DNA from: an uncultured Gemmatimonadaceae bacterium
GTDB taxonomy: Bacteria > Gemmatimonadota > Gemmatimonadetes > Gemmatimonadales > Gemmatimonadaceae
Direction: 5' to 3'
Length of the DNA stretch: 64,000 bases
NCBI GenBank assembly: GCA_963740355.1
Contig: CAVUDW010000003.1
Span: 96,001-160,000, forward strand
Shown: piece after piece, positions 38,235 to 56,087 of the stretch
Numbering within the stretch: the stretch's first letter is position 1
Layout: each line of letters starts with the position of its first letter
The notes under the pieces: generated by a model
Seen by the model: only the letters and a program-made list of their open reading frames with translations
What the model was told of the DNA's origin: nothing
Databases searched by the model: none
Position numbers and translations under genes: made by a program

Positions 38235-41200
38235 ATGAGCACGCGAGCGGAGCGCTCCCGTGCCGAGGCGGCTGACGAACTCCTCACCGGACCAATCGTC
38301 GGTGAGCTGCTGGGTGCTGATCACCTGGCGGCGCGCGCTCGCGCGGTTGCGCGCGGGCAGCGTCTCGTCACGACCCAGACGCCGTTACGGCCCGCACGCC
38401 TGCTGGCGCGCCTGGCCGATACACGACGCATCCTGACCGATGCGCAGGCAAGGCTGATCAGCGCCGCCGCCGCCGGAGTGGATGCCGGGCCAGCCGCAGA
38501 ATGGCTGCTCGACAACTACTACGTGGTGCAGGAGCACCTCCAGGAAGTGCGCGCCAGCCTTCCCGGAGGCTACTACCGTGAATTGCCGGAGCTGGCCACA
38601 GGTCCGCTCACAGGCTATCCGCGCGTCTACGAAATGGCGATCTCGCTCATTTCGCACACGGAAGCACGCGTCGACCTCGAGAATGTCGACCTGTATGTCG
38701 AGTCGTTCCAGAGTGTGACACCGCTCTCGCTTGGTGAGCTCTGGGCGATGCCGGCGATGCTGCGCCTGGGCCTGATCGAAAGCGTGCGGCGGATGACGCT
38801 GCGAACGATGCAGCGGCTCGATGAAATCGGGCTCGCGACGCTCTGGTCGGACCGCATCCTGGACGCCAGTGCACGCGGGGGCACCCCGCTGCGTGAAGCG
38901 CTGCGCGAGTTCGCCGACGCCGAACATGAACTGACGCCGCACTTCGTCTCCCGCTTCCTGCAGCTGCTGCGCCAGACCGAGGGTGCATCACCGCCGCTGG
39001 CCTGGCTCGAGCACTGGATGCGGGACGCCGGTGTCAGTCCGGAGACCGCGGTCGCACAGTCGACCCATCGTGTGACGCTGACGCAGATCATGATGGCCAA
39101 CAGCATCACGAGCCTGCGGGACATCGGACGCCGGGACTGGCGGATCTTCGTCGAGAAGCAGAGCGTGATGGAGACGGTGCTGCAGACCGATCCGTCGGGC
39201 CACTATCCGGTGATGACGTTCGCGACACGCGATCGCTATCGGCATGTGGTCGAGCGGATCGCGAAGAAGACCGGGCACCGTGAGACCTCCGTGGCGCAGT
39301 GGGCGATCGATCTCGCCCGCAGCCCAGTGTCTGATGCGAACGCACCGCTGGCGGATGTCCGCACACATGTCGGCTATTTCCTGATCGATGCCGGCGTCAC
39401 GGAGCTCGAGCGCGTCGCCGGGTATACGCCAACGCTGGGCGAGCGCATCGAACGCGCCGTGCACACCTACCCGAACGTGGTCTTTCTGGGTGGGCTGGGC
39501 ACGCTGGTGCTGCTCGCCACATCGTTCGTCCTGCTGCTGGTCGAACCGGATGCGCGGGAATCGATCTGGCTGCTGTTGCTGCTGGCCTTCCTGCCGGCAC
39601 TCGACATCGCAGTCACGATCCTCAATCAGCTCGTGACGGCCTTGCTGCCGCCGGATACGCTGCCGCGCCTCGACCTGTATACCAACGGCGTGCCCGCCGC
39701 GTACCGCACCGCGGTGGTCATTCCGACGTTGTTCGGCAGTGTGGGTGACGTGCACGACGCACTCGAGACCCTCGAAGTCCAGTTCCTCGCCAATCGCGAG
39801 GCGCACCTGCACTTTGCAATCCTCAGCGATTTCACCGACGCGGTGACGGAGACGACGGCGGCAGACGATGCCATCCTCGACGCCGCCCTCACCGGGATCC
39901 AGGAGCTGAACGATCGCCATGTGCACGAGCGGCACGTCGATGATGGCATCGGCCCCTTCCATCTCCTGCATCGTCCCCGGAAGTGGAATGCCCACGAAGG
40001 GGTGTGGATGGGCTGGGAGCGGAAGCGCGGCAAGCTGTCCGACTTCAATCGACTGGTGCGCGGCGAGTCGCTGAGCGCCTTCACGGTGATCGCTGGTGAC
40101 ACGAACGCCCTGATGGGTGTGAAGTACGTCATCACGCTCGACTCTGACACGGTGTTGCCGCCGGATGCGGCACCGTCACTGGTCGGCGCGATGGCGCATC
40201 CACTCAACCGAGCCGTCTACGACGCAAAGCGTGGCATGGTGCGCGGGTACGGCATCCTGCAGCCACGCGTGAGTGTGTCGCTTCCCAGTGCGCACCGTTC
40301 ACGTTTTGCGGCCATCGCCTCGGGCCATCCGGGTGTGGACCCGTATTCGACGGCCGTTTCGGATGTCTACCAGGACTTGTACGGCGAGGGCACGTTCACC
40401 GGCAAGGGGATCTACGACGTCGATGCGTTTCAGGTGGCAACGCACGGCCGCTTCCCCGAGAACACGCTGCTGTCGCACGACCTGATCGAGGGGAACTACG
40501 CGCGCGCCGGGCTCGCGACCGACGTGATCGTCTATGACGACTATCCGACGACCTATGTCGCGGCGACGCGGCGCAAGCACCGATGGATTCGAGGAGACTG
40601 GCAGTTGCTGCCGTGGCTCAGTCGCACGGTGCCCGGCCCGGACGGACCGGAGCGCAACCGGCTCTCGCTGGTGTCGCAGTGGAAGATCGTCGACAACCTG
40701 CGCCGCAGCACGGTCGAAATTGCACAGCTGATCTTTCTGGTGGGTGGCTGGACCCTGTTGCCCGGCTCCGCACTGCGCTGGACGCTTCTGGGCCTGGGTG
40801 CCATCGTCGCACCGTGGGTCACGGCACTGATCATCGCCGTGCTCAGGCCACCGCTCGACAAGTCATGGCGCGCGTACTACGAGGCGGTGGCGCAAGACGC
40901 CGTGGTGAGCCTCGAGCAAGCGCTGATTGCGATCCTCACCCTCCCGCATCAGGCGCTGGTGTCGGCCGATGCAATCTTTCGCACGCTGTATCGCCTGCTG
41001 GTCTCGCATCGGAAGATGCTGGAGTGGCAGTCGGCATCGTTGGTCGAGAAGTCGCTGACCGACATCAGTGCCATCACCCACCGTGCGATGCGCGCGAGTG
41101 TGCTGCTTTCCGGTTTCGGCATGCTGATGGTCGCAGCCAATGCGATTCGGCGCCAGCAGCAGCTCGGCTTGCCGCTGAGTGGGCTGGAAATGACGGCGTT

Positions 41201-44200
41201 CGTGGTTGGTGTGCTGACGATCTGCTGGCTGGTGGCGCCGCGTGTGATGGTGGCATTGAGTCGTCCATCGAGTGCCGCACGCCGCGTCCTGAGCAGCGGT
41301 GCCCGTGACGCAGCGATGCGCTACGCAGCACTCCACTGGCAGTACTTCGACACGTTCGTGACCGCCGAGACACACTGGCTCGCTCCCGACAACTTCCAGG
41401 CCGACCCGGACCCTGTCGTCGCGATGCGGACGTCGCCGACGAACATCGGATTGCAGTTACTGGCCACGGTGTGCGCGTACGACCTTGCCTTGATCAGCGC
41501 GTTGGAGATGACGAGTCGCCTCGAGCGCACCTTCGCCACCATGGCGTCGTTGCGGCGGTACCGCGGGCACTTTTACAACTGGTACGACCTCACGGACCTG
41601 CATGTACTGGAGCCGCCCTACATCAGTACGGTCGACAGCGGGAACATGGCCGGGCACCTGGTCGCGTTGCGGCAGGCGTGCCTTGCCATCGCTGGCGCCG
41701 AAGATGCCGTCCGCGAACGGCTGCATGCGCTGGCGAATGCCGCATACCAGTATGTCGTCGAGATGGAGTTCGGGTTCCTCTACGAGCCTGGGCGCAAGCT
41801 GTTCACGATCGGGTATCACCCGGAGTCGTTCACGCCGGACGACTCGTACTACGACCTGCTGGCGTCGGAGGCTCGCCTCGCAAGCTTCATCGCCATCGCT
41901 CGCAACGACGTGCCGCTGGAGCACTGGTTCCGCCTCTCGCGCAGCCTGAGCCGAACGGCTGGGTCGACGGCGCTGGTGTCGTGGAGCGGGAGCATGTTCG
42001 AGTACCTGATGCCGGTCCTGGTGATGCGGTCCCTGCCCTACACGCTGCTGGCGCAGACGTACGACGGCGTGGTCGAGCGTCACATGGCGTATGCGCGCAC
42101 GCGCAACGTGCCGTGGGGCGTGAGCGAAAGTGCGTACAACTTCCGAGATCGTCACCAGACGTACCAGTACCGCGCCTTCGGCATTCCGGACCTCGCGCTG
42201 AAGCGTGGCCTGGGGCGTGACCTCGTGGTCGCTCCATACGCCACGGCACTCGCCGCACAGGTGGATCCGACGCGCGCGATGAACAACCTCCGCACGCTCG
42301 AGGCGATGGGTGCCCTCGGTGAATACGGATTCTGTGATGCGATCGACTACACACGTCCACCCCAGGGTGGCCGGGTGGCCTTCGTGCGAGCGTACTTCGC
42401 CCACCACGTCGGCATGTCCCTCGTCTCGCTCACGAATGTGCTGATGAAGGACACGTGGCAGGACCGATTCCACGCTGACCCGCTGGTAAAGTCCGTCGAG
42501 CTGCTGCTGCATGAGCGCGTGCCGCGGCGCCTCATCCTGCAGGAGGCGCAATCGGCCCAACCCGACGAGGCGCGCCCGTCGCCCGAGACCGATCGCCCGG
42601 TGGTGCGCGAAGTGAACACGATGGTGCCATCGGCGCCACGTATCGCACTCCTCGGTTCAGTGCCGTACACCGTGATGCTCAATCACAACGGCAGCGGATT
42701 CAGCCGTTACGAGAACATCGCCGTCACACGCTGGCGTGCCGACAGCACGCTCGACGACACCGGCCAGTTCTGCTACATCAACGACATCACCGCCGGCCGC
42801 ATCTGGTCGGCCGCGCATCAGCCGATTGGTGCGCCGGCCGACTCGAGCCGTGCGTGGCTCGCCTCCGATCGCGTCACGCTTCATCGCGTTGACGGTGACA
42901 TCGAGACGCGGACCGAGATCACCGTCGTTCCCGCCGACAGCGCCGAGGTGCGGCGCGTCACGCTCACGAACACCGGGAGTGAGCCGCACGAGATCGAGCT
43001 GACGAGCTACGGTGAGGTCGCGATGACGACGCAGGGTGCCGACCTCGCACATCCGGCGTTCTCCAACCTGTTCGTCGAGACGGAATGGCATGGCTGGTGC
43101 ACTGCCATCACCGCCACCCGGCGTCCACGGATGCCGGACGACCTGCAGCTCTGGTGTGTGCACGTGGTGGATTCTGGCCGCGAGCGAATCGGTGCGGTGA
43201 CCTGTGAGACGGATCGAGCCCGATTCATTGGGCGAGGCAATACGGTTCGCGATCCTTCCGCGATGACCACCGCCGGTGAGCTCTCTGGAACCACAGGCCC
43301 GGTGCTCGACCCGATCTTCGCCCTCCGAACACGCGTCAGCGTCGCACCGGGACAATCGGTGAGCGTGGCATTCACCACGCTCGTCGCCACCACCCGTCAG
43401 GCGGCCTTCGAGTTGGCGGGCCGCTATCACGATTCACACGCAGCGCAGCGCGCCCTCGATTTCGCCTGGACGGCGACACAGGTCGAGTTGCAGGCCCTCG
43501 GCATCACGCCATCCAACGGCGCCGTCTTCCAGGAGCTTGCCAGCCAGCTGTTGTTCCTCGGCGGATCGCTTGCGCCACCGCACGATGAACTGCGACGCAG
43601 CCGCGGGTCACAGCCCCTGCTCTGGGCGCACGGCATCTCCGGCGACAACGCGATCGTCCTCGCGACGATCGATTCCATCGATGGCTTGCCGACCTTGCGC
43701 GAACTCTTTGCCGCGCACCGCTACTGGCGGCGACGCGGGCTCACCGTCGACCTCGTCGTGGTCAACTGCCATCAGGCCGACTACCTCCAGGAATTGCGGG
43801 ACGGGATCACGGAAGCGATGGTCGCAGCCAATGATGCGTCCCTCATGGATCGGCCGGGTGGCGTGTTCATCCGCCGCCGCGAGCTGTTTCTGGCGGACGA
43901 CTTCCTGATGTTGTCCGCCACCTCCCGCGTCCATGTGACCTGCGACGGCCGGTCGTTGACGCGCGTTCTGGCAAGCGCCGATACCTTCGCCGCCGATGAA
44001 GCGACGGGGGCCCTGTCGACCGCTGTAGCCCGCGCCGCTGATCGCGTCACACCGGCGCAGGTCGTGGTCATCGATCGCAGCGGACCACTGGCCACACTCG
44101 TCTCCGCGCTTCGTCCGCTGGTGGCGCCGCTGATTCCACGTGCCCCACGCCAGCGGCATCGCGCCGCCACTGTCGTCAGCAATGACCCGCCGCTCCAATT

Positions 44201-46601
44201 CGGTAATGGCATCGGCGGACTGGATGCGAACAACGACTACCGGATCGACGTCGACGACTCACGCCTCCCACCTGCACCGTGGGCAAACGTGATTGCGAAT
44301 GCAGCCGGGGGTTTCCTCGTCACGGAGCGTGGCGCTGGCTGCACATGGGCAGAGAACGCGTATTTCTATCGGCTGACGCCCTGGCACAACGATCCCGTCT
44401 CCGATCCGGTCAGCGACGCGATCTATCTGCAGGACGACGACACGGAAGATCTCTGGTCCGCGACGCCGGCCCCGGTCGACGGCGATGGCCCGTACCGCGT
44501 GACGCATGCGCCAGGTTGCTCCACATTCGAGCACGAGCATGATGGCATCCGCACCGAACTGCGACTGGGCGTCCCGACGCGCGAGGCCGTCAAGCTGTCA
44601 GCGCTGCGGATCACGAACCTGACGGCGCGTACGCGTCGCCTGACCGTCACTGCGTACGCGGAGTGGACGCTTGGTGCGCGTCGCGACGAGTCGCAGTATC
44701 ACGTCCGGACGCGGTTCGCGGCCGAGCATCAGGCGGTCTTTGCGCAGAACCTGTTCGATCCGCTGTTTGCGGAGTGGACTGCGTTCCTTGCCACCAGTGA
44801 GGCGGTCAGCAGCTTCACGACCGACCGGTTGTCCTTTCTCGGCCGCAACGGCCACGTGGGCGCGCCGGCGGGGTTGCGTGAACGCGGGCTCGACGGGAGT
44901 GCCGGTGTGGGTCTCGACCCATGCGCGGCCCTCCAGATGACCATCACGCTTGCTGCTGGTGAGTCACGAGACGTCAGCATCCTGCTGGGCGCTGCCAGGA
45001 CGCACGCTGAGGCGCGCACGACCCTCGAGAGGCTTCGGCCGGCCGCGCAATCGCAGGCCGCGATTTCGGATGCCGTCACGGAGTGGAAGACGCGGCTCGG
45101 CGTGATCACGGTGTCCACGCCGGATGCCGCGTTCGACGCCATGCTCAACAAATGGTCGCTGTATCAGGCCCTCTCCTGCCGGATGTGGGCCCGCATGGGC
45201 CTGTACCAGAGCAGTGGGGCGTACGGTTTCCGCGATCAGCTGCAGGACACGATGGCCTTCGTCTATGCCGAGCCAGCCATCGCGCGAGAGCATATCCTGC
45301 GTGCGGCGGCCCGACAGTTCGAGGAAGGCGATGTCCAGCACTGGTGGCACGCCCACAGCGGACGCGGCGTGCGGACGCGCTTTTCCGACGATCTGGCCTG
45401 GCTGCCATTCGTGGTCGAACGGTATGTGACCGTCACCGGTGACCTGAGCGTACTCGACGAGTACGTGCCGTTCATCACCATGCGCCAGCTGGCACCACAC
45501 GAGCATGAGCTGTACGACCTTCCGACGGTGACCGACGAGCATGGCAGCATTTACGAACACTGTCGCCGTGCCCTGCGCCGTGCCTGCACGTTCGGTCCAC
45601 ATGGATTGCCGCTGATCGGCACCGGCGACTGGAACGACGGCATGAGCCGCGTCGGTGCCGACGGCAAGGGCGAAAGTGTCTGGCTGGCGTGGTTCCTGAT
45701 CAAGACGATGCGGAGTTTCGCCTTGCTGGCCGACGCCCGCGCCGACACGGCCGAGGCGGAGTTCATGCGAACGATGAGCGACCGCTACGCTGCAGCGGTC
45801 GAGGTGAGCGGCTGGGACGGTGGCTGGTATCGTCGCGCCTATTACGACAATGGACAGCCGATCGGCTCAGCCACGAGCGACGAGTGCAAGATCGACTCGA
45901 TCGCACAAAGCTGGAGCGTGATTTCCGGCGCAGCACCCGAGGCACGTCAGGCGCAGGCGATGAGCGCGATGGACGAACAACTGGTGCGGGACGACGATCG
46001 CCTGATCGTATTGCTCACGCCGCCATTCGATGGGACGACCAACGATCCAGGCTACATCCGTGGCTACCTGCCAGGGGTGCGTGAGAATGGTGGGCAGTAC
46101 ACACACGCGGCGCTGTGGGCCGTGCTTGCGACGGCGATGCGTGGCGATGGTGATCGCGCCTTCGAGCTGTTCCAGATGCTCAACCCTCTCACGCACTCAG
46201 CCACACCAGAGGCGGTCGCGAAGTACAAGGTCGAGCCGTATGTGATTGCGGCTGACGTGTACACATCACCATCTCATGTGGGCCGCGGCGGCTGGACTTG
46301 GTACACGGGCTCGGCGAGCTGGATGTATCGTGTTGGCCTGGAAGCCATTCTGGGCTTCGAGAAGGTTGGTGACACGCTTCGGTTCGCGCCGTCGGTGCCA
46401 GCCGATTGGCCCGCCTACAAGCTGACATATCGGTATGGCCGCACGTCGTATGAAATCGAGGTCCGATCGCCCGCACGTGTGAAGGCACACGGGGCACGGA
46501 TCTCCGTAGGCGGAGTGAGGGTCGCCGGGAATGCCATCCGGCTCGTCGACGACGGGCAGTCACGTACCGTGATCGTGGAGCCTGAAACCAGCACGTCCTG
46601 A
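38235..46601 (+). CDS. ndvB: Cyclic beta-1,2-glucan synthase (Cgs/NdvB; GT84 plus GH94)
   Basis: 2788 aa; EWLLDN, WMGWERKRGKL, LLSHDLIEG, RWIRGDWQ, YDLLASEARL, YQSSGAYGFRDQLQD, DWNDG and RENGGQYTHA. Confidence 0.92.
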   Translation: MSTRAERSRAEAADELLTGPIVGELLGADHLAARARAVARGQRLVTTQTPLRPARLLARLADTRRILTDAQARLISAAAAGVDAGPAAEWLLDNYYVVQEHLQEVRASLPGGYYRELPELATGPLTGYPRVYEMAISLISHTEARVDLENVDLYVESFQSVTPLSLGELWAMPAMLRLGLIESVRRMTLRTMQRLDEIGLATLWSDRILDASARGGTPLREALREFADAEHELTPHFVSRFLQLLRQTEGASPPLAWLEHWMRDAGVSPETAVAQSTHRVTLTQIMMANSITSLRDIGRRDWRIFVEKQSVMETVLQTDPSGHYPVMTFATRDRYRHVVERIAKKTGHRETSVAQWAIDLARSPVSDANAPLADVRTHVGYFLIDAGVTELERVAGYTPTLGERIERAVHTYPNVVFLGGLGTLVLLATSFVLLLVEPDARESIWLLLLLAFLPALDIAVTILNQLVTALLPPDTLPRLDLYTNGVPAAYRTAVVIPTLFGSVGDVHDALETLEVQFLANREAHLHFAILSDFTDAVTETTAADDAILDAALTGIQELNDRHVHERHVDDGIGPFHLLHRPRKWNAHEGVWMGWERKRGKLSDFNRLVRGESLSAFTVIAGDTNALMGVKYVITLDSDTVLPPDAAPSLVGAMAHPLNRAVYDAKRGMVRGYGILQPRVSVSLPSAHRSRFAAIASGHPGVDPYSTAVSDVYQDLYGEGTFTGKGIYDVDAFQVATHGRFPENTLLSHDLIEGNYARAGLATDVIVYDDYPTTYVAATRRKHRWIRGDWQLLPWLSRTVPGPDGPERNRLSLVSQWKIVDNLRRSTVEIAQLIFLVGGWTLLPGSALRWTLLGLGAIVAPWVTALIIAVLRPPLDKSWRAYYEAVAQDAVVSLEQALIAILTLPHQALVSADAIFRTLYRLLVSHRKMLEWQSASLVEKSLTDISAITHRAMRASVLLSGFGMLMVAANAIRRQQQLGLPLSGLEMTAFVVGVLTICWLVAPRVMVALSRPSSAARRVLSSGARDAAMRYAALHWQYFDTFVTAETHWLAPDNFQADPDPVVAMRTSPTNIGLQLLATVCAYDLALISALEMTSRLERTFATMASLRRYRGHFYNWYDLTDLHVLEPPYISTVDSGNMAGHLVALRQACLAIAGAEDAVRERLHALANAAYQYVVEMEFGFLYEPGRKLFTIGYHPESFTPDDSYYDLLASEARLASFIAIARNDVPLEHWFRLSRSLSRTAGSTALVSWSGSMFEYLMPVLVMRSLPYTLLAQTYDGVVERHMAYARTRNVPWGVSESAYNFRDRHQTYQYRAFGIPDLALKRGLGRDLVVAPYATALAAQVDPTRAMNNLRTLEAMGALGEYGFCDAIDYTRPPQGGRVAFVRAYFAHHVGMSLVSLTNVLMKDTWQDRFHADPLVKSVELLLHERVPRRLILQEAQSAQPDEARPSPETDRPVVREVNTMVPSAPRIALLGSVPYTVMLNHNGSGFSRYENIAVTRWRADSTLDDTGQFCYINDITAGRIWSAAHQPIGAPADSSRAWLASDRVTLHRVDGDIETRTEITVVPADSAEVRRVTLTNTGSEPHEIELTSYGEVAMTTQGADLAHPAFSNLFVETEWHGWCTAITATRRPRMPDDLQLWCVHVVDSGRERIGAVTCETDRARFIGRGNTVRDPSAMTTAGELSGTTGPVLDPIFALRTRVSVAPGQSVSVAFTTLVATTRQAAFELAGRYHDSHAAQRALDFAWTATQVELQALGITPSNGAVFQELASQLLFLGGSLAPPHDELRRSRGSQPLLWAHGISGDNAIVLATIDSIDGLPTLRELFAAHRYWRRRGLTVDLVVVNCHQADYLQELRDGITEAMVAANDASLMDRPGGVFIRRRELFLADDFLMLSATSRVHVTCDGRSLTRVLASADTFAADEATGALSTAVARAADRVTPAQVVVIDRSGPLATLVSALRPLVAPLIPRAPRQRHRAATVVSNDPPLQFGNGIGGLDANNDYRIDVDDSRLPPAPWANVIANAAGGFLVTERGAGCTWAENAYFYRLTPWHNDPVSDPVSDAIYLQDDDTEDLWSATPAPVDGDGPYRVTHAPGCSTFEHEHDGIRTELRLGVPTREAVKLSALRITNLTARTRRLTVTAYAEWTLGARRDESQYHVRTRFAAEHQAVFAQNLFDPLFAEWTAFLATSEAVSSFTTDRLSFLGRNGHVGAPAGLRERGLDGSAGVGLDPCAALQMTITLAAGESRDVSILLGAARTHAEARTTLERLRPAAQSQAAISDAVTEWKTRLGVITVSTPDAAFDAMLNKWSLYQALSCRMWARMGLYQSSGAYGFRDQLQDTMAFVYAEPAIAREHILRAAARQFEEGDVQHWWHAHSGRGVRTRFSDDLAWLPFVVERYVTVTGDLSVLDEYVPFITMRQLAPHEHELYDLPTVTDEHGSIYEHCRRALRRACTFGPHGLPLIGTGDWNDGMSRVGADGKGESVWLAWFLIKTMRSFALLADARADTAEAEFMRTMSDRYAAAVEVSGWDGGWYRRAYYDNGQPIGSATSDECKIDSIAQSWSVISGAAPEARQAQAMSAMDEQLVRDDDRLIVLLTPPFDGTTNDPGYIRGYLPGVRENGGQYTHAALWAVLATAMRGDGDRAFELFQMLNPLTHSATPEAVAKYKVEPYVIAADVYTSPSHVGRGGWTWYTGSASWMYRVGLEAILGFEKVGDTLRFAPSVPADWPAYKLTYRYGRTSYEIEVRSPARVKAHGARISVGGVRVAGNAIRLVDDGQSRTVIVEPETSTS

Positions 46602-46640: not shown

Positions 46641-47174
46641 GTGCTCGTGTTGCTTCTGACAAATACTCGCCGCGTTGCCTCGACACTGGCCGTTGCCGCC
46701 ATGACGGGGATGACTGCCTGTGGTGCGGATGGCACGACGGCCCCACGCCCGGTGCCAGTCGAGGATGGTCGCCTGACGCTGTCACAGGTTGGCGCCCAGA
46801 AGATTCCTGTGATGGTTGATGAGTTCAGCGTTGATTCCGGCGACGCGGCGCTGCGATACGAGACGTGGGTCGAAGGTGGCGAGCTCACCCTCACCTCGGT
46901 CGGTACGCCGCGTTATGAACTGAATGTGCGATACGCGACGTACGGCGTCACGTTCGTGGATGGCCAGAAGGTGCTGCGGTTGATTGGCACATCCCGCGAA
47001 CGCGACCACGGTCAGGTGCAGCATGACTCCCGGGGGGAGATGGTGCTGACGTCTGACTACATCGCACCGCTGGTGCACACGGCGAGTCCAGTGACGGGCG
47101 GTGTCCGCATGGCGTATCGCGTTCCCGGCGACGACGTGATCCGCGACCTCTTCTACCGTCGCGAGCCGGACTGA
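46641..47174 (+). CDS. Hypothetical lipoprotein
   Basis: Lipobox-like MTAC after a hydrophobic stretch; beta-rich body. Confidence 0.6.
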   Translation: MLVLLLTNTRRVASTLAVAAMTGMTACGADGTTAPRPVPVEDGRLTLSQVGAQKIPVMVDEFSVDSGDAALRYETWVEGGELTLTSVGTPRYELNVRYATYGVTFVDGQKVLRLIGTSRERDHGQVQHDSRGEMVLTSDYIAPLVHTASPVTGGVRMAYRVPGDDVIRDLFYRREPD

Positions 47175-47386: not shown

Positions 47387-47854
47387 CTAGCCGACGGTCT
47401 TCATCTCCCCAGACAAGCGCAGATCCTTTCGCCGTTCCACCTCGGCAAGCTCCGTCAGGAACGACAACGCCTGGCCGGCCGACATGGTCCATGGCTCGAA
47501 CGCCTGCATGCCCGAATGCCGCATCACCAACTCACGTCGCTGCGGCGTGTAGGCCTCATCGAAGCTGATCATCTTCATCGACCAATCGATGAAGCTCCGC
47601 ATGTCGATCGGGGTGCAGCTGAGAATCTCGGTATCGTGGTGTCGAGTGTCACGCACGATCCGGTTGTACAGCTGGTTGACGTGCACCCGGCGTCCCTCGA
47701 TGGCCTGCAGGAACGCGCCACCGCTGAAGCACAGAATTCCACTGATGCCGTTCGGCGTATTGAACGCCTTGGCCGACGCGCGAATCTGCCGGTAGTCATC
47801 GAGACTGAACCCGGGACGGGCGACGCTGGCGTAGATGAGTCGTATGATCTGCAT
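47387..47854 (-). CDS. Stand-alone BLUF-domain blue-light photoreceptor
   Basis: LIYAS (Tyr), N...ISGIL, FLQAIEG (Gln), RIVRDTRH and RSFIDWSM (Trp/Met); short C-terminal cap and no output domain. Confidence 0.92.
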   Translation of the reverse strand: MQIIRLIYASVARPGFSLDDYRQIRASAKAFNTPNGISGILCFSGGAFLQAIEGRRVHVNQLYNRIVRDTRHHDTEILSCTPIDMRSFIDWSMKMISFDEAYTPQRRELVMRHSGMQAFEPWTMSAGQALSFLTELAEVERRKDLRLSGEMKTVG

Positions 47855-48251
47855 GCCTCGCAGTCTCGGTAGGCATTGGCATCAGGTTGAGTCTTGGTCA
47901 CGGCACGGCACGCCAGTCCTACCAGGATCCTGCATCGTTCATCGATAGCAGGGATCCTTGCAATTGGCACACGAGTCCATCGCGACGATTGCGGCGCATG
48001 TTTCTCGACGATCGGATATTCGGACCGGCTAGTCTCAAGAATGGCACCAAGATGAAGAGCAGCTCAGAAAACACGGGGATTCCCCTACAAACATGGCCGA
48101 TTCTGGCCTGTTTCGCACGCAAGATTGGAACGCCGCAACTCATTAAATGCCATACACATAAAGGCGTTACAGCTTCACCTGACAACTGCCGAGCATTGCA
48201 GGAACAGCGGACGATTCCGAGGCACATCCCGCTCCTCACTTCCTCACGAAG

Positions 48252-50513
48252 ATGGACGACCTCCTCAGGGACTTCCTGACCGAAAGCAGCGAGAACCTTG
48301 GCAAGCTCGATAACGACATCGTCGAACTCGAGCAGCATCCCGAGGACACCGCGCGCTTGAATTGCGTCTTCCGCACCATTCACACGATCAAGGGAACGTG
48401 CGGATTTCTTGGACTCGTTCGGCTGGAAGGCATTGCACATGCGACCGAGAACGTGCTCGACGCACTGCGCGCTGGCCGTCTGACGGTTCAGGAGGAATTG
48501 ATCGGCGACGTGCTCGCGGCCATCGACTGCATCAAGATGGTGCTGCAGACGCTCGAGACCACGGAAGTGGAACCGGAAGGTGACGACGCGGCACTGATCA
48601 CGCGGCTCGAGCGCTGGCTTCCCGCGTCGGAGCGTGTGCATGAGTTGCCTGACGCGAGCCAGATTGCCGCAATCGCAGCGGGGCCGCTGGTGCCGGTCGA
48701 GCGCGCCGCCATCAGTGCTGCGGAGGCGCCACTCGCTCCGAGCGCCGGAAGCGATGCGAGTGAGGCACAGGGGCGCGATGGTGCGTCATGGGATGGCGTC
48801 GAGCGTCGGAATGGCAAGCCCGAAGCGCACGTTGCCGAGAGCACGCTGCGCGTCGGCGTCGACGTCCTCGACAAGCTGATGAACCTCGTCGGCGAGCTGG
48901 CCCTCGGGCGCAACCAGCTGTTGCAACTCGCCGCCTCGGAGGAGGAGTCACCCTTCGCCAAGCCGGTGCAACAGCTGGATCGCGTCACGACCGACCTGCT
49001 CGAGGCGGTGATGAAGACGCGCATGCAGCCGATCGGGAATGCCTGGACGAAGTTGCCGCGGTTGGTGCGTGACCTGTCGCAGTCGAGCGGCAAGCACATC
49101 ACCCTCGTGATGCATGGCGCGGAGACCGATCTCGATCGGCAGATCCTGCAGGCGATCCAGGATCCCCTCACACACATGATCCGCAATTCCGCCGACCATG
49201 GCGTGGAATCGCCATCGGTCCGTCGTGAGGCGGGCAAGTCGGAGACCGGCACCATTCGTCTCAGCGCCCGCCATGAGGGCGGCCATGTGGTGATCGAGAT
49301 TGCGGATGATGGCGCCGGCATCAATGCGGCCCGCGTGCGTCGGAAGGCGGTCGAGCGCGGCCTGATCAAGGCGGACGTCGCCGATGCCATGCCCGACGCG
49401 CAGATCCTGCGCTACATCTTCGAGCCTGGCTTCTCGACCGCCGAGCAGGTGACCAACGTCTCGGGACGAGGTGTTGGGATGGACGTCGTCCGCAGCAATA
49501 TCGATGCGATCGGCGGCACGGTGGAACTGTCGTCCCAGATGGGGCTGGGCACGACGGTTCGGATCAAGATTCCGCTGACCCTTGCCATCATCTCCGCGCT
49601 GCTCGTCGGCACGGCGGGTGAATCGTTCGCGGTGCCGCAAATCGGCATCGTCGAGCTGGTCCGGGTGACGGAGGATCAGCAGCATCTAGTGGAAGACGTG
49701 CACGGTGCACAGTTCTATCGCCTGCGCGAAACACTGCTGCCACTCGTGCCGCTGCGCACGCTGCTCAACCTCGGCGCCGGCTCTCCGACCGCGACATACA
49801 ACATCGTGGTCTGTCAGGTGGGCGAGGCGCGATTCGGGCTCGTCGTCGAGGAGGTCTTCGATACCCAGGAGATCGTGGTCAAGCCGGTGGGCCGCTTGAT
49901 CAAGCATCTGTCGGCCTACGCCGGGTGCACGATCACCGGCGACGGGCGCGTGATCATGATCCTCGACACGACCGGCATCGCCAACATCGCGAACGTCGCC
50001 AGCAGCCAGACGCGCGACGAGGCGGAGCGTGCCTCGCAGCAGGCCGAGCGCGACCGTCTTGCCGCACAGGTCGATGCGAAGGAAAGTGTGCTGCTGTTCG
50101 ATGCCGGCCTCCCTGCCCTGCAGGCAGTGCCGCTCTCGCTGGTGGCTCGCCTCGAGGAGTTCCCGCTCTCCGCCATGGAAGAAGCGGACGGGCATTTCCT
50201 GGTGCAGTACCGCGGGGAGCTGATGCCGGTGATCGCATCGAGCCCGTCGGTCGACCTGCGAAGCATGGATCCGCGACCGGTGATCGTCTTCAGCGACCGG
50301 ACCCGGACCATCGGACTCGCGGTGAACGAGATCCGCGACATCGTCGAGGACCACGTCACCCTGCAACGACGCGCCACACGCGTTGGAGTGCTCGGCGTGG
50401 CAGTGATCGCTGGTCGTGCGACGGAAATGATCGACACCGACTACTTCCTGCGGCATGCGCACGGTGAAAGTGCCACCGCCACCGACTCCACTTCCATGAC
50501 GGTGGGCGCATGA
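48252..50513 (+). CDS. cheA: Chemotaxis histidine kinase CheA with two C-terminal CheW domains
   Basis: HTIKG Hpt, RNSADHG, DDGAG, PGFSTA and SGRGVGMDVV; two CheW-like domains. Confidence 0.95.
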   Translation: MDDLLRDFLTESSENLGKLDNDIVELEQHPEDTARLNCVFRTIHTIKGTCGFLGLVRLEGIAHATENVLDALRAGRLTVQEELIGDVLAAIDCIKMVLQTLETTEVEPEGDDAALITRLERWLPASERVHELPDASQIAAIAAGPLVPVERAAISAAEAPLAPSAGSDASEAQGRDGASWDGVERRNGKPEAHVAESTLRVGVDVLDKLMNLVGELALGRNQLLQLAASEEESPFAKPVQQLDRVTTDLLEAVMKTRMQPIGNAWTKLPRLVRDLSQSSGKHITLVMHGAETDLDRQILQAIQDPLTHMIRNSADHGVESPSVRREAGKSETGTIRLSARHEGGHVVIEIADDGAGINAARVRRKAVERGLIKADVADAMPDAQILRYIFEPGFSTAEQVTNVSGRGVGMDVVRSNIDAIGGTVELSSQMGLGTTVRIKIPLTLAIISALLVGTAGESFAVPQIGIVELVRVTEDQQHLVEDVHGAQFYRLRETLLPLVPLRTLLNLGAGSPTATYNIVVCQVGEARFGLVVEEVFDTQEIVVKPVGRLIKHLSAYAGCTITGDGRVIMILDTTGIANIANVASSQTRDEAERASQQAERDRLAAQVDAKESVLLFDAGLPALQAVPLSLVARLEEFPLSAMEEADGHFLVQYRGELMPVIASSPSVDLRSMDPRPVIVFSDRTRTIGLAVNEIRDIVEDHVTLQRRATRVGVLGVAVIAGRATEMIDTDYFLRHAHGESATATDSTSMTVGA

Positions 50514-50986
50514 GCACCAGAACCGCCGCACCCGGTACGAGCATACGCACCGGCCAGCTCGAGTACGTCACGTTCAGGCTCGCCGAGCAGTGGCTCGGCA
50601 TCCCGGTGATGGTCGTCCAGGAGGTGCTGGTGGCGATGCGCATTGCGCGCGTGCCGATGGCGCCGGATGCGATTGCCGGCTTTCTCAACCTGCGCGGGCA
50701 GATCGTCACGGCCGTCGACCTGCGCACCACGCTGCAGCTCGACGCCCGCGCCGCGGATGCAGAGATCATGAATGTCGTCGTCCAGCATGAGGGCGAGCTG
50801 TTCGCCTTCATGGTCGACGAAGTGGGTGATGTGGTGTCGGTGGAAAGCGACACCGTCGAACCTCCGCCAGCGACCCTCGACGCGCGTTGGCGAATGGCCT
50901 GCTCCGGCATCGTCCGTCGGGACCGCGGGCTGCTGCTGGTCATGAATGTTCACGAAGTGCTTCGCCTCGAGCACGTGTCCGGCTGA
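50510..50986 (+). CDS. cheW: CheW adaptor
   Basis: VQEVL, AGFLNLRGQIVTAVDLR and VDEVGDV. Confidence 0.93.
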   Translation: MSTRTAAPGTSIRTGQLEYVTFRLAEQWLGIPVMVVQEVLVAMRIARVPMAPDAIAGFLNLRGQIVTAVDLRTTLQLDARAADAEIMNVVVQHEGELFAFMVDEVGDVVSVESDTVEPPPATLDARWRMACSGIVRRDRGLLLVMNVHEVLRLEHVSG

Positions 50987-51082
50987 GCCCCCAGTGTGGC
51001 GGGCTCCCGACTGAGTTACAGAGGCGAGCCACACAGCAGCACATCCACCCATCGACACCACCATCCGCGCATCCCACTGACC

Positions 51083-53137
51083 ATGTCCACGAATCGAATC
51101 CCGACGCCCGGCACACGATCCACCAAGCTCGCTGGCAAGAGCCGCGCATCAGCCGGTGCGATCTCGCACGGTGACAGTGCTGCCAAAGACAGCGCAGAGA
51201 GTCTCGCCCTTGCCGCCAGGGTGGCGGATCTCGAAGCGCAGGTGGCGGCGATCAACACCTCGATGGCGGTGGTCGAGTTCGATCTCGATGGCACGGTGCT
51301 CACCGCCAATGCCAACTTCCTCAGCGTGATGGGCTACACGCTGCCAGAGATCCAGGGCCGGCACCATTCGATGTTCGTGGATGAGGCATACAAGGCGAGC
51401 GCGGAATACCGCGATTTCTGGGCGAAGCTGAACCGCGGCGAATTTGACGCGGCGGAATATCGTCGTGTCGCGCGCGGTGGTCGTGAGGTCTGGATCCAGG
51501 CGTCGTACAACCCGATCCGCGACCGGTCCGGGCGCGTCGTGAAGGTCATCAAGTACGCGTCGGACATCACCAGGCAGAGCACGGCGATGGCCGATTTCGA
51601 AGGACAGGTCTCGGCCATCGGCAAGTCGAATGCGGTGATCGAGTTCAACCTCGACGGCTCGATCCTCACGGCGAACGACAATTTCCTCGGGCTGCTCGGC
51701 TACACCCTCGATGAAGTGCGAGGCCAGCACCACTCCATGTTCGTCGACGAGGCGTACCGCAACAGCAACGCCTACAAGGAGTTCTGGGCCAAGCTCAATC
51801 GCGGCGAGTACCACTCCGACGAGTTTCGCCGTATTGGCAAGGGCGGCAAGGTGTGCCACATCCAGGCGACCTACAACCCGATCCGAGGCCGCGATGGGCG
51901 CCTGGTGAAGGTGGTCAAGTACGCCACCGACAGCACGGCGCTCGTGAAAATGCGCGCCGAGATGGCGCTCTTCAAGCCGATGGTGGAGTCCGCACGAGTC
52001 AACCTGATGCTCTGCGATCTCGATTTCAACATCAAGTACATCAACCCTGCGTCACTCGAGACGCTGACCCGCATCGAGAAGCACCTGCCGGTGAAGGCCA
52101 GCCAGGTCGTCGGCAGCAAGATCGACATCTTCCACAAGGATCCCGCGCACCAACGCGCGATGTTGTCGACCGACAAGAACCTGCCGCACAACGCCAAGAT
52201 CCGCGTCGGCCCGGAGACGCTCGACCTCAACGCCGTCGCCATCTACAACGAGGCCGGTGAGTACGTCGGCCCGATGGTGAACTGGTCGGTGATCACGGAT
52301 CAGGTGCGCATGGCAGACGACTTCGAGGCCACTGTGGCGGCGATTGCAAGCGTCGTCAGTTCCTCCTCGACCGAACTCGAAGCGAGCGCCCAGGGAATGG
52401 CGGCATCGTCCGAGGAGACGACGCGCCAGGCACAGGCAGTCGCCGCCGCGTCGGAACAGGCGACGCGCAACGTGCAGACCGTGGCCAGTTCCGCCGAGGA
52501 ACTCACGGCGAGCATCCGCGAGATCGCCGGGCGCGTGCAGGAAGCGTCACAGATCTCACAGGTAGCGGTGAAGCAGGCGAGCGATACGACCGAGACGATG
52601 GCGAAGCTCGGCATCTCCTCGCAGGAGATCGGCCAGGTGGTGAAGGTCATCACGTCCATCGCACAGCAGACCAACCTGCTCGCCCTGAACGCCACGATCG
52701 AGGCCGCCCGTGCCGGCGAGGCAGGAAAGGGCTTCGCCGTGGTCGCCAACGAGGTCAAGGAGCTCGCACGCCAGACGGCGCGCGCGACGGAGGAGATTGG
52801 CAGCAAGATCGCGGGCGTCCAGAGCGAAACCGCGTCGGCCGTGACTGCCATCCGCGAAATCACGAGCGTGATCAACAAGATCAACGAGATCTCGACCACC
52901 ATCGCGGGGGCCGTCGAAGAACAGAACGCGGCCACCAGCGAGATCTCGCGCAATGTCGGCGAAGCCGCCCGCGGCACGGCGGAGGTCAGTTCGAGCATCT
53001 CGACGGTCACGATGGTGGCCGCGGAAGGGGGCCGCACCGCCGAGAACATCCGCACGGCGGCGGGTGGCTTGTCGGTGGAGTCGGAGCGGCTGAACAGTGC
53101 GGTGACCGACTTCCTCACCAAGCTGCGGAAGATCTGA
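51083..53137 (+). CDS. Soluble methyl-accepting chemotaxis protein with three PAS domains
   Basis: No TM helix; two PAS-PAC repeats (ANxNFL...HHSMF...FWAKL...YNPI); a third PAS with [42 protein letters not shown]. Confidence 0.93.
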
Positions 53138-53139
53138 CC

Positions 53140-53508
53140 ATGAAGCGCATTCTGGTGATCGATGATTCGGGGACCATCCGGAAGGCCATTCGCCGCATTC
53201 TGGAGCAGCTGAACTATGCGGTGACGGAGGCGGAGGATGGCGAGCAGGCACTGCACGTGCTTGCCGTGGGCGACAGGTTCGACGCCGTCCTCTGCGACAT
53301 CGACATGCCGAACATGGATGGCTTGCAGTTCCTGAGCGCTGTCTCGGCGCGACCGGCGCTGCTCCCGCCACCGATCATCATGTGCACGACGCACACCTCG
53401 TTCGACAAGATCCAGACCGCGCTCACGCTTGGGGCCTCCGAGTACATCATGAAGCCCTTCGACGCCACGATCATCGGCTCGAAGCTCGAGGCGTGCGGGG
53501 TTCTGTGA
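53140..53508 (+). CDS. cheY: CheY response regulator
   Basis: IDDS, CDIDMP, MCTT and YIMKPF. Confidence 0.9.
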   Translation: MKRILVIDDSGTIRKAIRRILEQLNYAVTEAEDGEQALHVLAVGDRFDAVLCDIDMPNMDGLQFLSAVSARPALLPPPIIMCTTHTSFDKIQTALTLGASEYIMKPFDATIIGSKLEACGVL

Positions 53509-54593
53509 GCGTGCACGCCGACCCTATCCGTGTGCTGATCGTCGACGACAGCGCGGTGATTCGTGGCGCGCTTGGGCGCATCATCGACGCCGAGGCCGAC
53601 ATGACCGTGGCCACCACTGCACCGAACGGCAAGGTGGCGCTCGACGCGCTGCGGCACACCAAGATCGATGTCGTGCTGCTGGATGTCGAAATGCCGGAGA
53701 TGGATGGGTTGACGGCGCTGCCGTTGATCCTCGCCGCCTACCCCGACACGCGCGTGATCATGGCCAGTTCGCTCACGCAACGCGGGGCGGAGGTCACGAT
53801 GCATGCCCTCGCGATGGGTGCGGCGGACTACATCGCGAAGCCGGCGGCGAAGTCGGGCTCGGCGACCCTCGCCGCAATCAGCACCGAGATCGCCTCGAAG
53901 GTCCGAGCGATCGGGCGTGCTGCGCGTGGACGCCGGCCGGTGGTGGTCGGCGCGGCGAGACCGGCCTCACCTGCGCGCACCGAGCTCCTTGCCGCGCGCA
54001 GCAGTGACGCCCCGCCCCGGATCGTGGCCATCGCCTCGAGCACCGGTGGCCCCAATGCCCTGGCCGACGTGTTGTCCGCACTCCCGAAGGACTTCCCCCT
54101 GCCGATCCTGATCACACAACACATGCCTGCCGTCTTCACTGGCCTGCTCGCCTCGCGGCTCGAGCGCGACACCGGACGCACCTGCGTGGAAGCGAAGGAT
54201 GGCGACCTGATTCGTGCGAACTGCACCTACGTGGCCCCGGGCGAACACCACATGGTCGTCCTCACGAACGAAGGGCAACCATTTGTCCGACTGACGAAGA
54301 CGGAGCCTGAAAACTTCTGTCGTCCCTCTGCCGACCCAATGCTGCGTTCGATCGCGGCCGTCTATGGCGCATCGACGCTGGCGATCGTGCTGACCGGGAT
54401 GGGGGAGGATGGTTTGCGCGGCTGCGAGGAGGTGAAGCATCGCGGCGGTCGCATCCTGGTGCAGGATGAGGCGACCAGTGTGGTCTGGGGCATGCCTGGT
54501 GCCGTGGCGAACGCGGGGCTCGCATCCGCCGTGCTTCCATTGTCGAAGGTCGCCAACGCCATCATGGCCCAGTGTGGAGCGCTGGCCGCATGA
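53505..54593 (+). CDS. cheB: CheB methylesterase response regulator
   Basis: REC domain plus ASSTGG, QHM and LTGMGEDG; GTGA overlap with cheY. Confidence 0.93.
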   Translation: MSVHADPIRVLIVDDSAVIRGALGRIIDAEADMTVATTAPNGKVALDALRHTKIDVVLLDVEMPEMDGLTALPLILAAYPDTRVIMASSLTQRGAEVTMHALAMGAADYIAKPAAKSGSATLAAISTEIASKVRAIGRAARGRRPVVVGAARPASPARTELLAARSSDAPPRIVAIASSTGGPNALADVLSALPKDFPLPILITQHMPAVFTGLLASRLERDTGRTCVEAKDGDLIRANCTYVAPGEHHMVVLTNEGQPFVRLTKTEPENFCRPSADPMLRSIAAVYGASTLAIVLTGMGEDGLRGCEEVKHRGGRILVQDEATSVVWGMPGAVANAGLASAVLPLSKVANAIMAQCGALAA

Positions 54594-55441
54594 TCACCCC
54601 CGACGAGTATGCCTTCCTTGGCGAGCTGCTGAAGAAGCACAGCGGCCTCGCACTTGGCCCCGGCAAGGAGTACCTGATCGAGAGTCGACTGCCGCCAGTG
54701 GCCGTCACGTATGGCCACGCGGACGTCACCGCGCTGATCGCGGCACTGCGCAAGGGGGCGCCAGCGGCCGTCGTGAAGAACGTGTGCGACGCGATGACGA
54801 CGAACGAGACGCTATTCTTCCGTGACAACAAGCCATTTGTCGCGCTCGAGAAGGAGATCCTGCCGGCGGCCGCCCGCCGCGCGCGCGAGCAGGGTCGGCC
54901 GGTGCGCATCTGGTGTGCGGCCAGCTCCACCGGTCAGGAGCCGTACTCGATCGCGATGATCGTCGCTCAGACGGAGTCGCAGTTGGGTGGTGCAAAGGTC
55001 GAGATCATCGCCACCGACTACTCCGCCGCAGCGCTGGCGCGCGCGAAGTCTGGCGTGTACAACCAGTTCGAGGTGCAGCGCGGGCTGCCGGTAACGCACC
55101 TGATGAAGTACTTCACGCCAGTGCCTGAGGGTTTCGAGCTGAAGCCGGAGATTCGCAATCGGGTGCAATACCAGGAGATCAACCTCCTCGATCCGTTTCC
55201 GGCGTACTGGCAGTTCGACATCATCTTCTGTCGCAATGTGCTGATCTACTTCGATGTGCCGACGAAGAAGGACGTCATCGACCGCATGGCGCGGACGATG
55301 ACGCGAGGGGCGAGCCTCTTTCTCGGCGGAACGGAGAGCACACTCGGTATCACCGATTCCGTGGTGCGCGTTCCGAACCACCCGTCAGGCGTCTTTTGCA
55401 AGCCGAACGAACTCGAGTTGCACACCTCGATCGCAGCCTGA
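54590..55441 (+). CDS. cheR: CheR methyltransferase
   Basis: TTNETLFFRD, IWCAASSTGQEPYS and FDIIFCRNVLIYF. Confidence 0.95.
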   Translation: MITPDEYAFLGELLKKHSGLALGPGKEYLIESRLPPVAVTYGHADVTALIAALRKGAPAAVVKNVCDAMTTNETLFFRDNKPFVALEKEILPAAARRAREQGRPVRIWCAASSTGQEPYSIAMIVAQTESQLGGAKVEIIATDYSAAALARAKSGVYNQFEVQRGLPVTHLMKYFTPVPEGFELKPEIRNRVQYQEINLLDPFPAYWQFDIIFCRNVLIYFDVPTKKDVIDRMARTMTRGASLFLGGTESTLGITDSVVRVPNHPSGVFCKPNELELHTSIAA

Positions 55442-55501: not shown

Positions 55502-55549
55502 ATGTCGTTCGTCACCGCTACTCGAGAGTGGCGGGGTGTGAGTCTGGCG

Positions 55550-55864
55550 CTATTCGAGCCAGACCGTCACCTGCCGGTTGGGCTCGTCGAGCGTGAAGAT
55601 GGAGCGAGGATAGAGGACCTCCTGTCGATTGAGGTCCTCGGTGATGGCATCGAGCGGTATTTGCTCGGCCCGAATCTTCGTGACTACATCAGCAGGGATC
55701 AGTTCGATCAGCCATTTGGCACTGCGCGACGGCAGGGCTACCCGCACCCGCTCCTCACCATCGCGCACGACGCGGACCATCAGGTTCTTTGCCGGCGTGC
55801 CGGGCTCCGCCTTGGTGCCGGCGGAGAAGAAGCTGCGAACCCAGGTGTAGGGGCAGGCTGACAT
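55550..55864 (-). CDS. Hypothetical protein
   Basis: About 104-aa ORF with protein-like composition filling the gap; no recognised motif. Confidence 0.5.
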   Translation of the reverse strand: MSACPYTWVRSFFSAGTKAEPGTPAKNLMVRVVRDGEERVRVALPSRSAKWLIELIPADVVTKIRAEQIPLDAITEDLNRQEVLYPRSIFTLDEPNRQVTVWLE

Positions 55865-56087
55865 GCGGAATCCAGGGCTGAATGGTACGGGTGACGTGTC
55901 CGCGATCACGAGGAGAGTATCGTCACACTCACACCGATCGGTGAGCTGAATTCCGTGACGAATGATCAGCGCCTGCTGGGCTTCGAATGCTGCCACGCGC
56001 CGACTCGACGCCGGGTGCGAGTGCCAGCGATATTACGCGTGTCACACCATGTGATCGCCACAGCCGCTCTCGTCACTTTCGTGCACC

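Follow-up and report, generated by a model that had tools for sequence, protein, structure and literature searches.

The window analysed here is a stretch of 64,000 nucleotides from an uncultured Gemmatimonadaceae bacterium (G000:C3:96001-160000, in a genome of 5.45 Mb and five contigs), and it carries a gene for a stand-alone BLUF photoreceptor placed head-to-head with a complete chemosensory operon, cheA-cheW-mcp-cheY-cheB-cheR, behind which a small orphan gene, OrfX, faces back. Our main finding, supported by comparison with related genomes, is that BLUF is kept or lost together with the che operon and that the two behave as a unit. We see about an even chance that this unit is a module of the FliA regulon that adds a blue-light input to an oxygen- and redox-sensing chemosensory pathway controlling swimming, and through the BLUF protein these swimmers can probably respond to light. 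The organism is a flagellated relative of Gemmatimonas. Its genome contains the reaction-centre genes pufL and pufM, and fliG and two flagellin genes lie on contig C2 at 203-219 kb. An initial annotation, made from the letters of the window, had described a shared divergent region of roughly 400 bp and the six genes of the operon, and both descriptions hold. The spacer between BLUF and cheA (47855-48251) measures 397 bp, and Pfam, from which all gene and domain calls on the window proteins come unless stated otherwise, recognises CheA, CheW, the methyl-accepting chemotaxis protein (MCP), CheY, CheB and CheR, a complete chemosensory pathway set. The inclusion of OrfX moves the right-hand end of the module beyond cheR, to 55864.

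The synteny survey that the initial annotation had proposed found the adjacency of BLUF and cheA well beyond this genome: about 20 genomes of Gemmatimonadaceae, in two GTDB genera, have it. A full-length CheA orthologue (73-83% identity) occurs in eight of 19 further species of this GTDB genus, and in all eight a BLUF gene (39-73% identity) lies upstream of it on the opposite strand. For the wider survey an alignment of BLUF was run against one genome per species. This gave 80 loci, 19 of which are Gemmatimonadota-like, and BLUF adjoins cheA in 17 of these 19. One of the two exceptions, L017, sits on a contig that ends 160 nt upstream of BLUF, and the CheA orthologue of its genome begins at a contig start; at the other, L025, che genes are absent within 10 kb of BLUF. 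The second genus with the module is represented by G288 (the genome of locus L023) and G352. No che genes were found near BLUF in the 61 loci from Burkholderiales, cyanobacteria and other phyla, nor near five BLUFs from other families of Gemmatimonadota (L097, L098, L099, L104 and L105). A BLUF of any kind was present in eight of the 401 genomes of an even sample of the class.

The surroundings of the pair differ between loci. The outer neighbour of BLUF encodes a 2788-aa protein in this genome and its close relatives; at L023 it is an aldo/keto reductase region, at L026 a peptidase M20 gene and at L030 a DUF2071 gene, with the BLUF-cheA pair constant throughout. The orthologous spacers between BLUF and cheA range from 141 to 463 bp and have little overall similarity. 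Relatives of the same genus that do not have the module were compared over the same region: the 2788-aa gene runs directly into a Usp gene in G008, a thioesterase fragment stands between these two genes in G010, and in G011 the thioesterase gene comes immediately after a reading frame named orf177. Since the flanking genes are adjacent in these module-free relatives, the missing block consists of BLUF, the operon and one further gene, OrfX. Given the change of flanks, the clean absence of the block and OrfX as a further member of it, the linkage appears to be more than an inherited gene order.

The BLUF tree leaves its deeper branches without resolution. Its linked lineage comprises 20 rows, of which 19 are seen beside cheA and one, L017, is cut by the end of its contig. 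The four Gemmatimonadaceae BLUFs that lie away from cheA (L025, L010, L100 and L103) form a subclade of their own (85/88), and they look like a paralogous lineage, not displaced orthologues.

Two irregularities in the surveyed loci should be recorded. At L012 (G011:C239:1-5000), where BLUF is absent, an amidohydrolase gene lies upstream of a 484-aa CheA that lacks its CheW-like domain, and a cheR fragment follows this CheA directly at the contig start; the arrangement suggests an operon copy that has decayed or been rearranged. Additionally, six loci (L021, L025, L042, L057, L072 and L074) are Gemmatimonadota-like or Burkholderiales-like and stand under the titles of unrelated organisms. The tree places them with the Gemmatimonadota-like or Burkholderiales-like groups, and their metagenome bins or labels are probably wrong.

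The promoters of the module provide further evidence that its parts belong together. The sigma-28 consensus used here is that of Escherichia coli, and a weight matrix was trained on 14 other loci with the window and three near-duplicates left out; the scores of the training loci themselves are circular. A first, looser pattern, with 419 matches across the genome, was discarded for its lack of specificity. In the orthologous spacers a sigma-28-like site is found 42-69 nt upstream of the cheA ATG (56 nt in the window), and these sites match up to 15 of the 16 positions of the E. coli-derived consensus (in L019, L021 and L029). A site of the same kind ends 7-9 nt before the BLUF ATG in 16 of 18 aligned spacers, the two without it being L014, where it is eroded, and L016. 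In the window the -10 element ends 8 nt before the ATG, so a leaderless BLUF mRNA is predicted. A search of public RNA runs for this DNA listed no run that contains it. Upstream of OrfX, at 52-66 nt, the sites score 13-16 in seven of 11 loci, the one in the window being weaker (Table 1).

Applied to the whole genome, the matrix gave its best score (24.1) to the site upstream of a flagellar operon on contig C2, cheY-cheZ-cheA-cheW-cheR-cheD-cheX-cheB. Relative to the upstream regions of 3804 open reading frames (ORFs), the two flagellin genes stand at the 99.9th and 99.0th percentiles, four of the ten receptor genes at or above the 96.6th, and the cheA promoter of the window at the 99.1st. The BLUF site of the held-out locus L017 scores 21.5, and no sigma-28-like site was found at the unlinked BLUF of L025 or at any of 13 BLUF loci outside the phylum. 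A gene for a FliA/WhiG sigma factor is present at C2:184530-185201 (TIGR02479, 221 bits against a cut-off of 189.6). Judged by their sequences, the promoters of BLUF, cheA and OrfX appear to be of one flagellar, sigma-28-like type, and FliA would be the sigma factor acting on them.

The BLUF protein itself had been described as having an intact Tyr/Gln/Trp-Met set and no output domain, and this was correct. Tyr8, Gln50, Trp91 and Met93 are all present, and the BLUF domain (96.8 bits against a cut-off of 25) is the only Pfam domain in the protein. Among 20 aligned BLUFs Tyr8, Trp91 and Met93 are invariant and Gln50 is kept in 19. The closest relative with a solved structure is PixD Slr1694, a phototaxis sensor of cyanobacteria (41% identity across the full length, E 6e-32), which aligns over residues 1-142 and thus covers both C-terminal helices. 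In the AlphaFold (AF2) model (predicted local distance difference test, pLDDT, 87.5) the C-terminal helices 104-114 and 126-153 are packed as in PixD, and the model superposes in Foldseek on PixD 2HFO with template modelling (TM) scores of 0.87/0.96 and a root-mean-square deviation of 1.1 Å over 140 columns. By alignment and model, then, the window BLUF is a PixD-type short form. It is the single BLUF in its genome. No longer, fused relatives turned up among 619 candidates, which is weak evidence only. The one BLUF with a changed glutamine is that of G003 (loci L014 and L006; L014:10001-10462), where Gln50 has become Glu. The equivalent mutant of AppA, Q63E, is said in the title of a paper to be locked in a pseudo-light state, and the G003 protein may be a natural light-blind or locked form.

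CheA begins with MDDLLRDFLTE and has the two CheW domains that the initial annotation had given it, the second one being weak: the C-terminal stretch of about 110 residues, when scanned alone, scores as CheW-like with 24.4 bits and an E-value of 2.4e-5. In the CheA orthologue of L030 Pfam finds both CheW stretches. In CheY, residues Asp8, Asp9, Asp53, Thr83 and Lys105 are invariant in 13 orthologues. The likely GTG start of cheB overlaps the stop of cheY. As a separate observation, CheA at the more distant loci L029, L030 and L031 has an extra C-terminal receiver after its two CheW-like domains; in the 884-aa protein of L030, Pfam places Response_reg at residues 762-872.

The only receptor of the operon had been read as cytoplasmic with PAS domains as its only sensors, and it does lack a membrane helix (the top 19-residue Kyte-Doolittle mean is 0.98) and carries three PAS domains. 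PAS3 aligns with the haem PAS of Aer2 from Vibrio cholerae (6CEQ, 7e-20) and Pseudomonas aeruginosa (3VOL, 1e-18). The features of such a domain, as defined in PMC10107281, are a haem-binding His and an O2-stabilising Trp, and both the His-bearing stretch and the Trp are conserved when PAS3 is aligned with 6CEQ, 3VOL and 4HI4. On these alignments PAS3 is a putative Aer2-type haem/O2 PAS that would bind haem. PAS1 and PAS2 match PAS domains of the flavin type (MmoS 3EWK, 4e-14; Aer, 5e-9), and may bind flavin adenine dinucleotide (FAD). The combination of light, redox and oxygen sensing in a bacteriochlorophyll-making cell, put forward in the initial annotation, therefore gains support from the types of PAS domain and the presence of pufLM, with the binding of the cofactors as a prediction. 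Pfam found no HAMP family in the receptor at E-values up to 0.001, and since only 144 residues separate the Trp of PAS3 (residue 430) from the tip of the hairpin (574) there is no room for a HAMP (di-HAMP) unit. The arms of the hairpin have about 139-144 residues each, and the comparison with Tsr, which is of the 36H class according to PMC9855816, shows one symmetric gap of 7 residues per arm. Against the NCBIfam equivalog model for Aer2 the receptor scores 155 bits, below the cut-off of 1200.

Three CheA genes and ten receptor genes are present in the genome. One of these CheA genes, at C2:225 kb, belongs to the flagellar operon with the best matrix site; this operon lies beside flagellar genes and is the main chemotaxis system of the genome. 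Because it is already there, the window operon is an extra Che system, and the CheA of the window is 36% identical to its CheA. A third che cluster is located at G000:C2:2155981-2169105 (locus L112), in the order cheY, cheA, a TPR protein, a PATAN-TPR protein, a TPR-Roadblock/LC7 protein, a double DnaA-like ATPase, a second PATAN-TPR protein and a TPR protein.

The module is linked to phototrophy. All 18 module-bearing genomes that were checked have pufLM (the window's own genome, eight of the same genus and nine others). In 17 other genera of the family, a sample that includes the unpublished genome G026 as one row, there was no match to the window BLUF, and 16 of the 17 also lack pufLM. As the phototrophs here form one clade, the association is one by descent.

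OrfX is found in 11 of the 13 other loci that reach past cheR; a remnant of 42 residues is left in L014, and L023 lacks the gene. Its strand was decided by tblastn, with identities of 61-84% on the minus strand against 38-59% for the antisense frame. A 119-aa frame on the plus strand (orf119, 55502-55861) had first been taken as the gene, and by these identities it is the antisense of OrfX. The alignment of 11 sequences has a mean column identity of 82%. Its 95 homologue clusters belong to no Pfam family, and the organisms named in them are all Gemmatimonadota. A protein atlas holds unnamed clusters only, and a wide fold search with the model (pLDDT 64.7) produced no match above a Z of 2.9.

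A short BLUF that stands beside che genes and has a role in light-dependent motility is not unprecedented. Both Synechocystis PixD (Slr1694, with its partner PixE) and TePixD (Tll0078) are, like the window BLUF, short with two C-terminal helices. However, PixE, a PATAN-receiver protein, has the type IV pilus motor as its target, whereas the window BLUF adjoins a complete flagellar-type Che operon, and the cyanobacterial relatives that were retrieved, unlike the window BLUF, have no che genes within 10 kb. A search of the genome for a PATAN-receiver partner resembling PixE gave three matches to PF14332 in two proteins, both of them the PATAN-TPR proteins of the third che cluster at C2 2.16 Mb and neither near BLUF. 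A review of light-controlled motility, in its available part, lists PixD alone for BLUF-based taxis (PMC5812497). In Spongiibacter nanhainus CSC3.9, according to PMC8805636, the short (<200 aa) BLUF protein I6N98_15960 is encoded immediately beside che genes and motAB, its deletion removes the effect of blue light on soft-agar motility and on che and mot expression, and in the authors' model BLUF passes the signal to CheA/W/Y/R. Spongiibacter is a gammaproteobacterium and a non-phototroph, whereas the window organism is a phototrophic member of the Gemmatimonadaceae. The Spongiibacter genes are described there as downstream, with gaps of 4 kb and 33 kb in the figure, in contrast to the compact divergent pair of the window, and the passages on them mention no Aer2-type receptor or OrfX, both of which are in the window module. 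BLUF-MCP fusions have also been reported, from annotation, in a preprint on Achromatium. The initial annotation knew of no described direct coupling of BLUF to an MCP or to CheA, a statement that the Spongiibacter case and the Achromatium fusions temper.

The receptor allows a second comparison. Aer2 receptors belong to Che2 of P. aeruginosa, Che3 of V. cholerae, Che2 of V. vulnificus and Che1 of S. oneidensis, which are put in class F7; their conserved core is PAS, di-HAMP and kinase-control domain, and multi-PAS forms such as VvAer2 exist (PMC10107281). The likeness is that the window also has a soluble receptor inside an accessory che cluster, directly after cheA-cheW. The differences are that PAS3 is joined to the kinase-control domain without HAMP, that the operon has no CheD and no RsbU/RsbV, and that the receptor has no C-terminal pentapeptide. 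The initial annotation had likened CheA and the gene order to the F5-class Che1 systems of Azospirillum brasilense and Rhodospirillum centenum. We take the order of Azospirillum Che1 to be cheA-cheW-...-cheY-cheB-cheR, as in the window operon, but the in-operon receptor and its Aer2-type PAS point elsewhere: by sequence, the type of receptor points to the Aer2-containing systems filed under F7. What is new in the module is the combination of a PixD-type BLUF, a HAMP-less Aer2-type receptor, OrfX, three flagellar-type promoters and a restriction to phototrophic Gemmatimonadaceae. Our literature search, to which subscription journals and supplements did not belong, found no paper that describes it in Gemmatimonas or the Gemmatimonadota.

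Taken together, we propose that phototrophic Gemmatimonadaceae may use a module of three transcripts, with BLUF on one, cheA-cheW-mcp-cheY-cheB-cheR on another from the other strand and OrfX on a third that faces back, and that this module would be co-expressed with the late flagellar (FliA/sigma-28) genes. O2 would be sensed by the Aer2-type haem PAS of the soluble receptor and redox probably by its two FAD-type PAS domains, and the receptor would drive CheA and CheY. To this the PixD-type BLUF would add blue light, and light most likely controls whether it binds or releases a pathway protein. This is suggested because PixD controls motility through a separate partner protein, and its dark complex with the partner falls apart in blue light (PMC11181946). 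The combined signal would bias flagellar swimming and result in joint light and oxygen taxis. The partner of BLUF could be the MCP, the extra CheW-like domain of CheA, CheY or OrfX, and the data prefer none of these; a complex prediction for BLUF and CheY returned 'no answer' with a score of 0.00, which is evidence neither way. A stronger form of the proposal, in which the proteins make up a dedicated cytoplasmic array and BLUF, perhaps via OrfX, delivers blue light as a direct input to a flagellum-steering complex of CheA and an Aer2-like haem/O2 receptor, is possible but doubtful.

Several observations weigh against BLUF as a light input to this pathway. The linked cases are non-independent because all are in one family, and inheritance could explain much of the synteny. 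BLUF evolves much faster than its neighbours, with identities of 37-73% against 67-92% for the Che proteins. In G003 the che operon is intact even though its BLUF has Glu in place of Gln50, the BLUF promoter is eroded and OrfX is a remnant, which indicates an operon that is independent of a photoactive BLUF. The BLUF of G019 (L016) has no promoter site, the window's own sites are moderate (13.7 and 14.4) in a genome where 324 sites score at least 14, and ten phototrophic species of the same genus do without the module. The Aer2-containing Che systems of gammaproteobacteria are reported in PMC10107281 not to steer flagella directly. Linkage, co-loss and a shared type of promoter partly support the earlier suggestion that BLUF may feed the che pathway, while any contact between BLUF and a Che protein is something that we infer.

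One alternative is that BLUF acts on gene expression, by binding a regulator such as an anti-sigma factor or a repressor according to light or dark and so changing the transcription of che and late flagellar genes. This is how BLUF proteins act in the AppA-PpsR and YcgF-YcgE pairs, regulators are often transcribed divergently from their targets, and three module promoters of one type would offer a single control point. Such action has been proposed for the Spongiibacter BLUF, whose deletion abolished the blue-light rise in che and mot transcripts (PMC8805636). However, the window BLUF has no DNA-binding domain, there is no regulator gene in the module, and PixD, the nearest solved relative, has a motility protein, not transcription, as its target, which leaves this explanation unlikely. 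Another alternative, which we think quite unlikely, is that the che operon does not serve taxis at all and has some other output, for instance in stress or stationary phase, that BLUF tunes, similar to the Aer2 systems of Pseudomonas, Vibrio and Shewanella. The Aer2-type PAS of the receptor fits this, as do the reported lack of direct flagellar modulation by such systems, the Aer2-type system of Shewanella that touches RpoS control (PMC9855816) and the full flagellar che operon that the genome already has. Yet the only output gene of the window operon is a canonical single-domain CheY, Pfam found no RsbU/RsbV-type, CheD or other output gene at the locus, and the operon has a flagellar-type promoter.

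It may also be that BLUF is a member of the flagellar regulon that acts on the motor, on cyclic di-GMP or in photoprotection, in which case its adjacency to cheA would reflect a shared spacer and joint inheritance. The fast divergence of BLUF relative to the Che proteins, the paralogous BLUF lineage elsewhere in the same genomes and the operon kept in G003 beside its altered BLUF would all agree with this. But the linkage is found in two genera and has persisted through four or more changes of the outer flank, and in the linked lineage 19 of 20 BLUFs are beside cheA (the contig-cut L017 being unconfirmed), and we regard this explanation as improbable. A blue-light input to the chemosensory pathway is the reading that we prefer over these three.

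Table 1. Features of the BLUF-che module, in positions of the window
Feature	Position	Strand	Basis or remark
BLUF gene, stand-alone, PixD-type, 155 aa	47387..47854	-	Pfam BLUF, E 8e-28
Predicted sigma-28-like promoter of BLUF	47863..47890	-	matrix score 13.7
Predicted sigma-28-like promoter of the che operon	48168..48195	+	matrix score 14.4
cheA (Hpt, dimerisation, HATPase, CheW and weak second CheW-like domain)	48252..50513	+	Pfam
cheW	50510..50986	+	Pfam CheW, E 2.9e-31
mcp, soluble receptor (PAS1, PAS2, putative Aer2-type PAS3, kinase-control hairpin)	50996..53137	+	Pfam PAS folds, MCPsignal
cheY, single receiver domain	53140..53508	+	Pfam Response_reg, 1.8e-28
cheB (receiver and methylesterase)	53505..54593	+	frame 53382-54593; likely start GTG 53505
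cheR	54572..55441	+	Pfam CheR, 9e-55
OrfX, 104-aa orphan, convergent with cheR	55550..55864	-	tblastn, alignment
-10-like element before OrfX (weak here)	55917..55924	-	whole-site score 6.9

Next to the module, the ORF for the 2788-residue protein occupies positions 38235-46601 (+) of the window, with 72-80% identity within the genus and about 50% in other families of the order. Between it and BLUF lies orf177 (46641-47174, +), which has a lipoprotein-like N-terminal signal and no Pfam family, and is 51-52% identical in G006 and G011. Because it is retained in G011, which has no module, orf177 is outside the module.

If the stronger form of the proposal is true, this would be the first soluble BLUF that serves as the light-input subunit of a flagellar chemoreceptor array, and phototaxis would gain a molecular explanation in a phylum whose photosynthesis was acquired through gene transfer. 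Lakes and soils are rich in phototrophic Gemmatimonadota, whose behaviour is to our knowledge almost unstudied; we also know of few cases of direct light sensing, as opposed to sensing of photosynthetic electron flow, in flagellated anoxygenic phototrophs. The module offers a place to search for partners of PixD-type BLUF proteins outside the cyanobacteria, a HAMP-less join between an Aer2-type PAS and a kinase-control domain, and an orphan family associated with a Che operon. The eight genes and three promoters of the module make a compact and testable candidate that would unite blue light, O2 and redox in a single decision on swimming, and for an aerobic cell that makes bacteriochlorophyll it is this combination that decides photo-oxidative damage.

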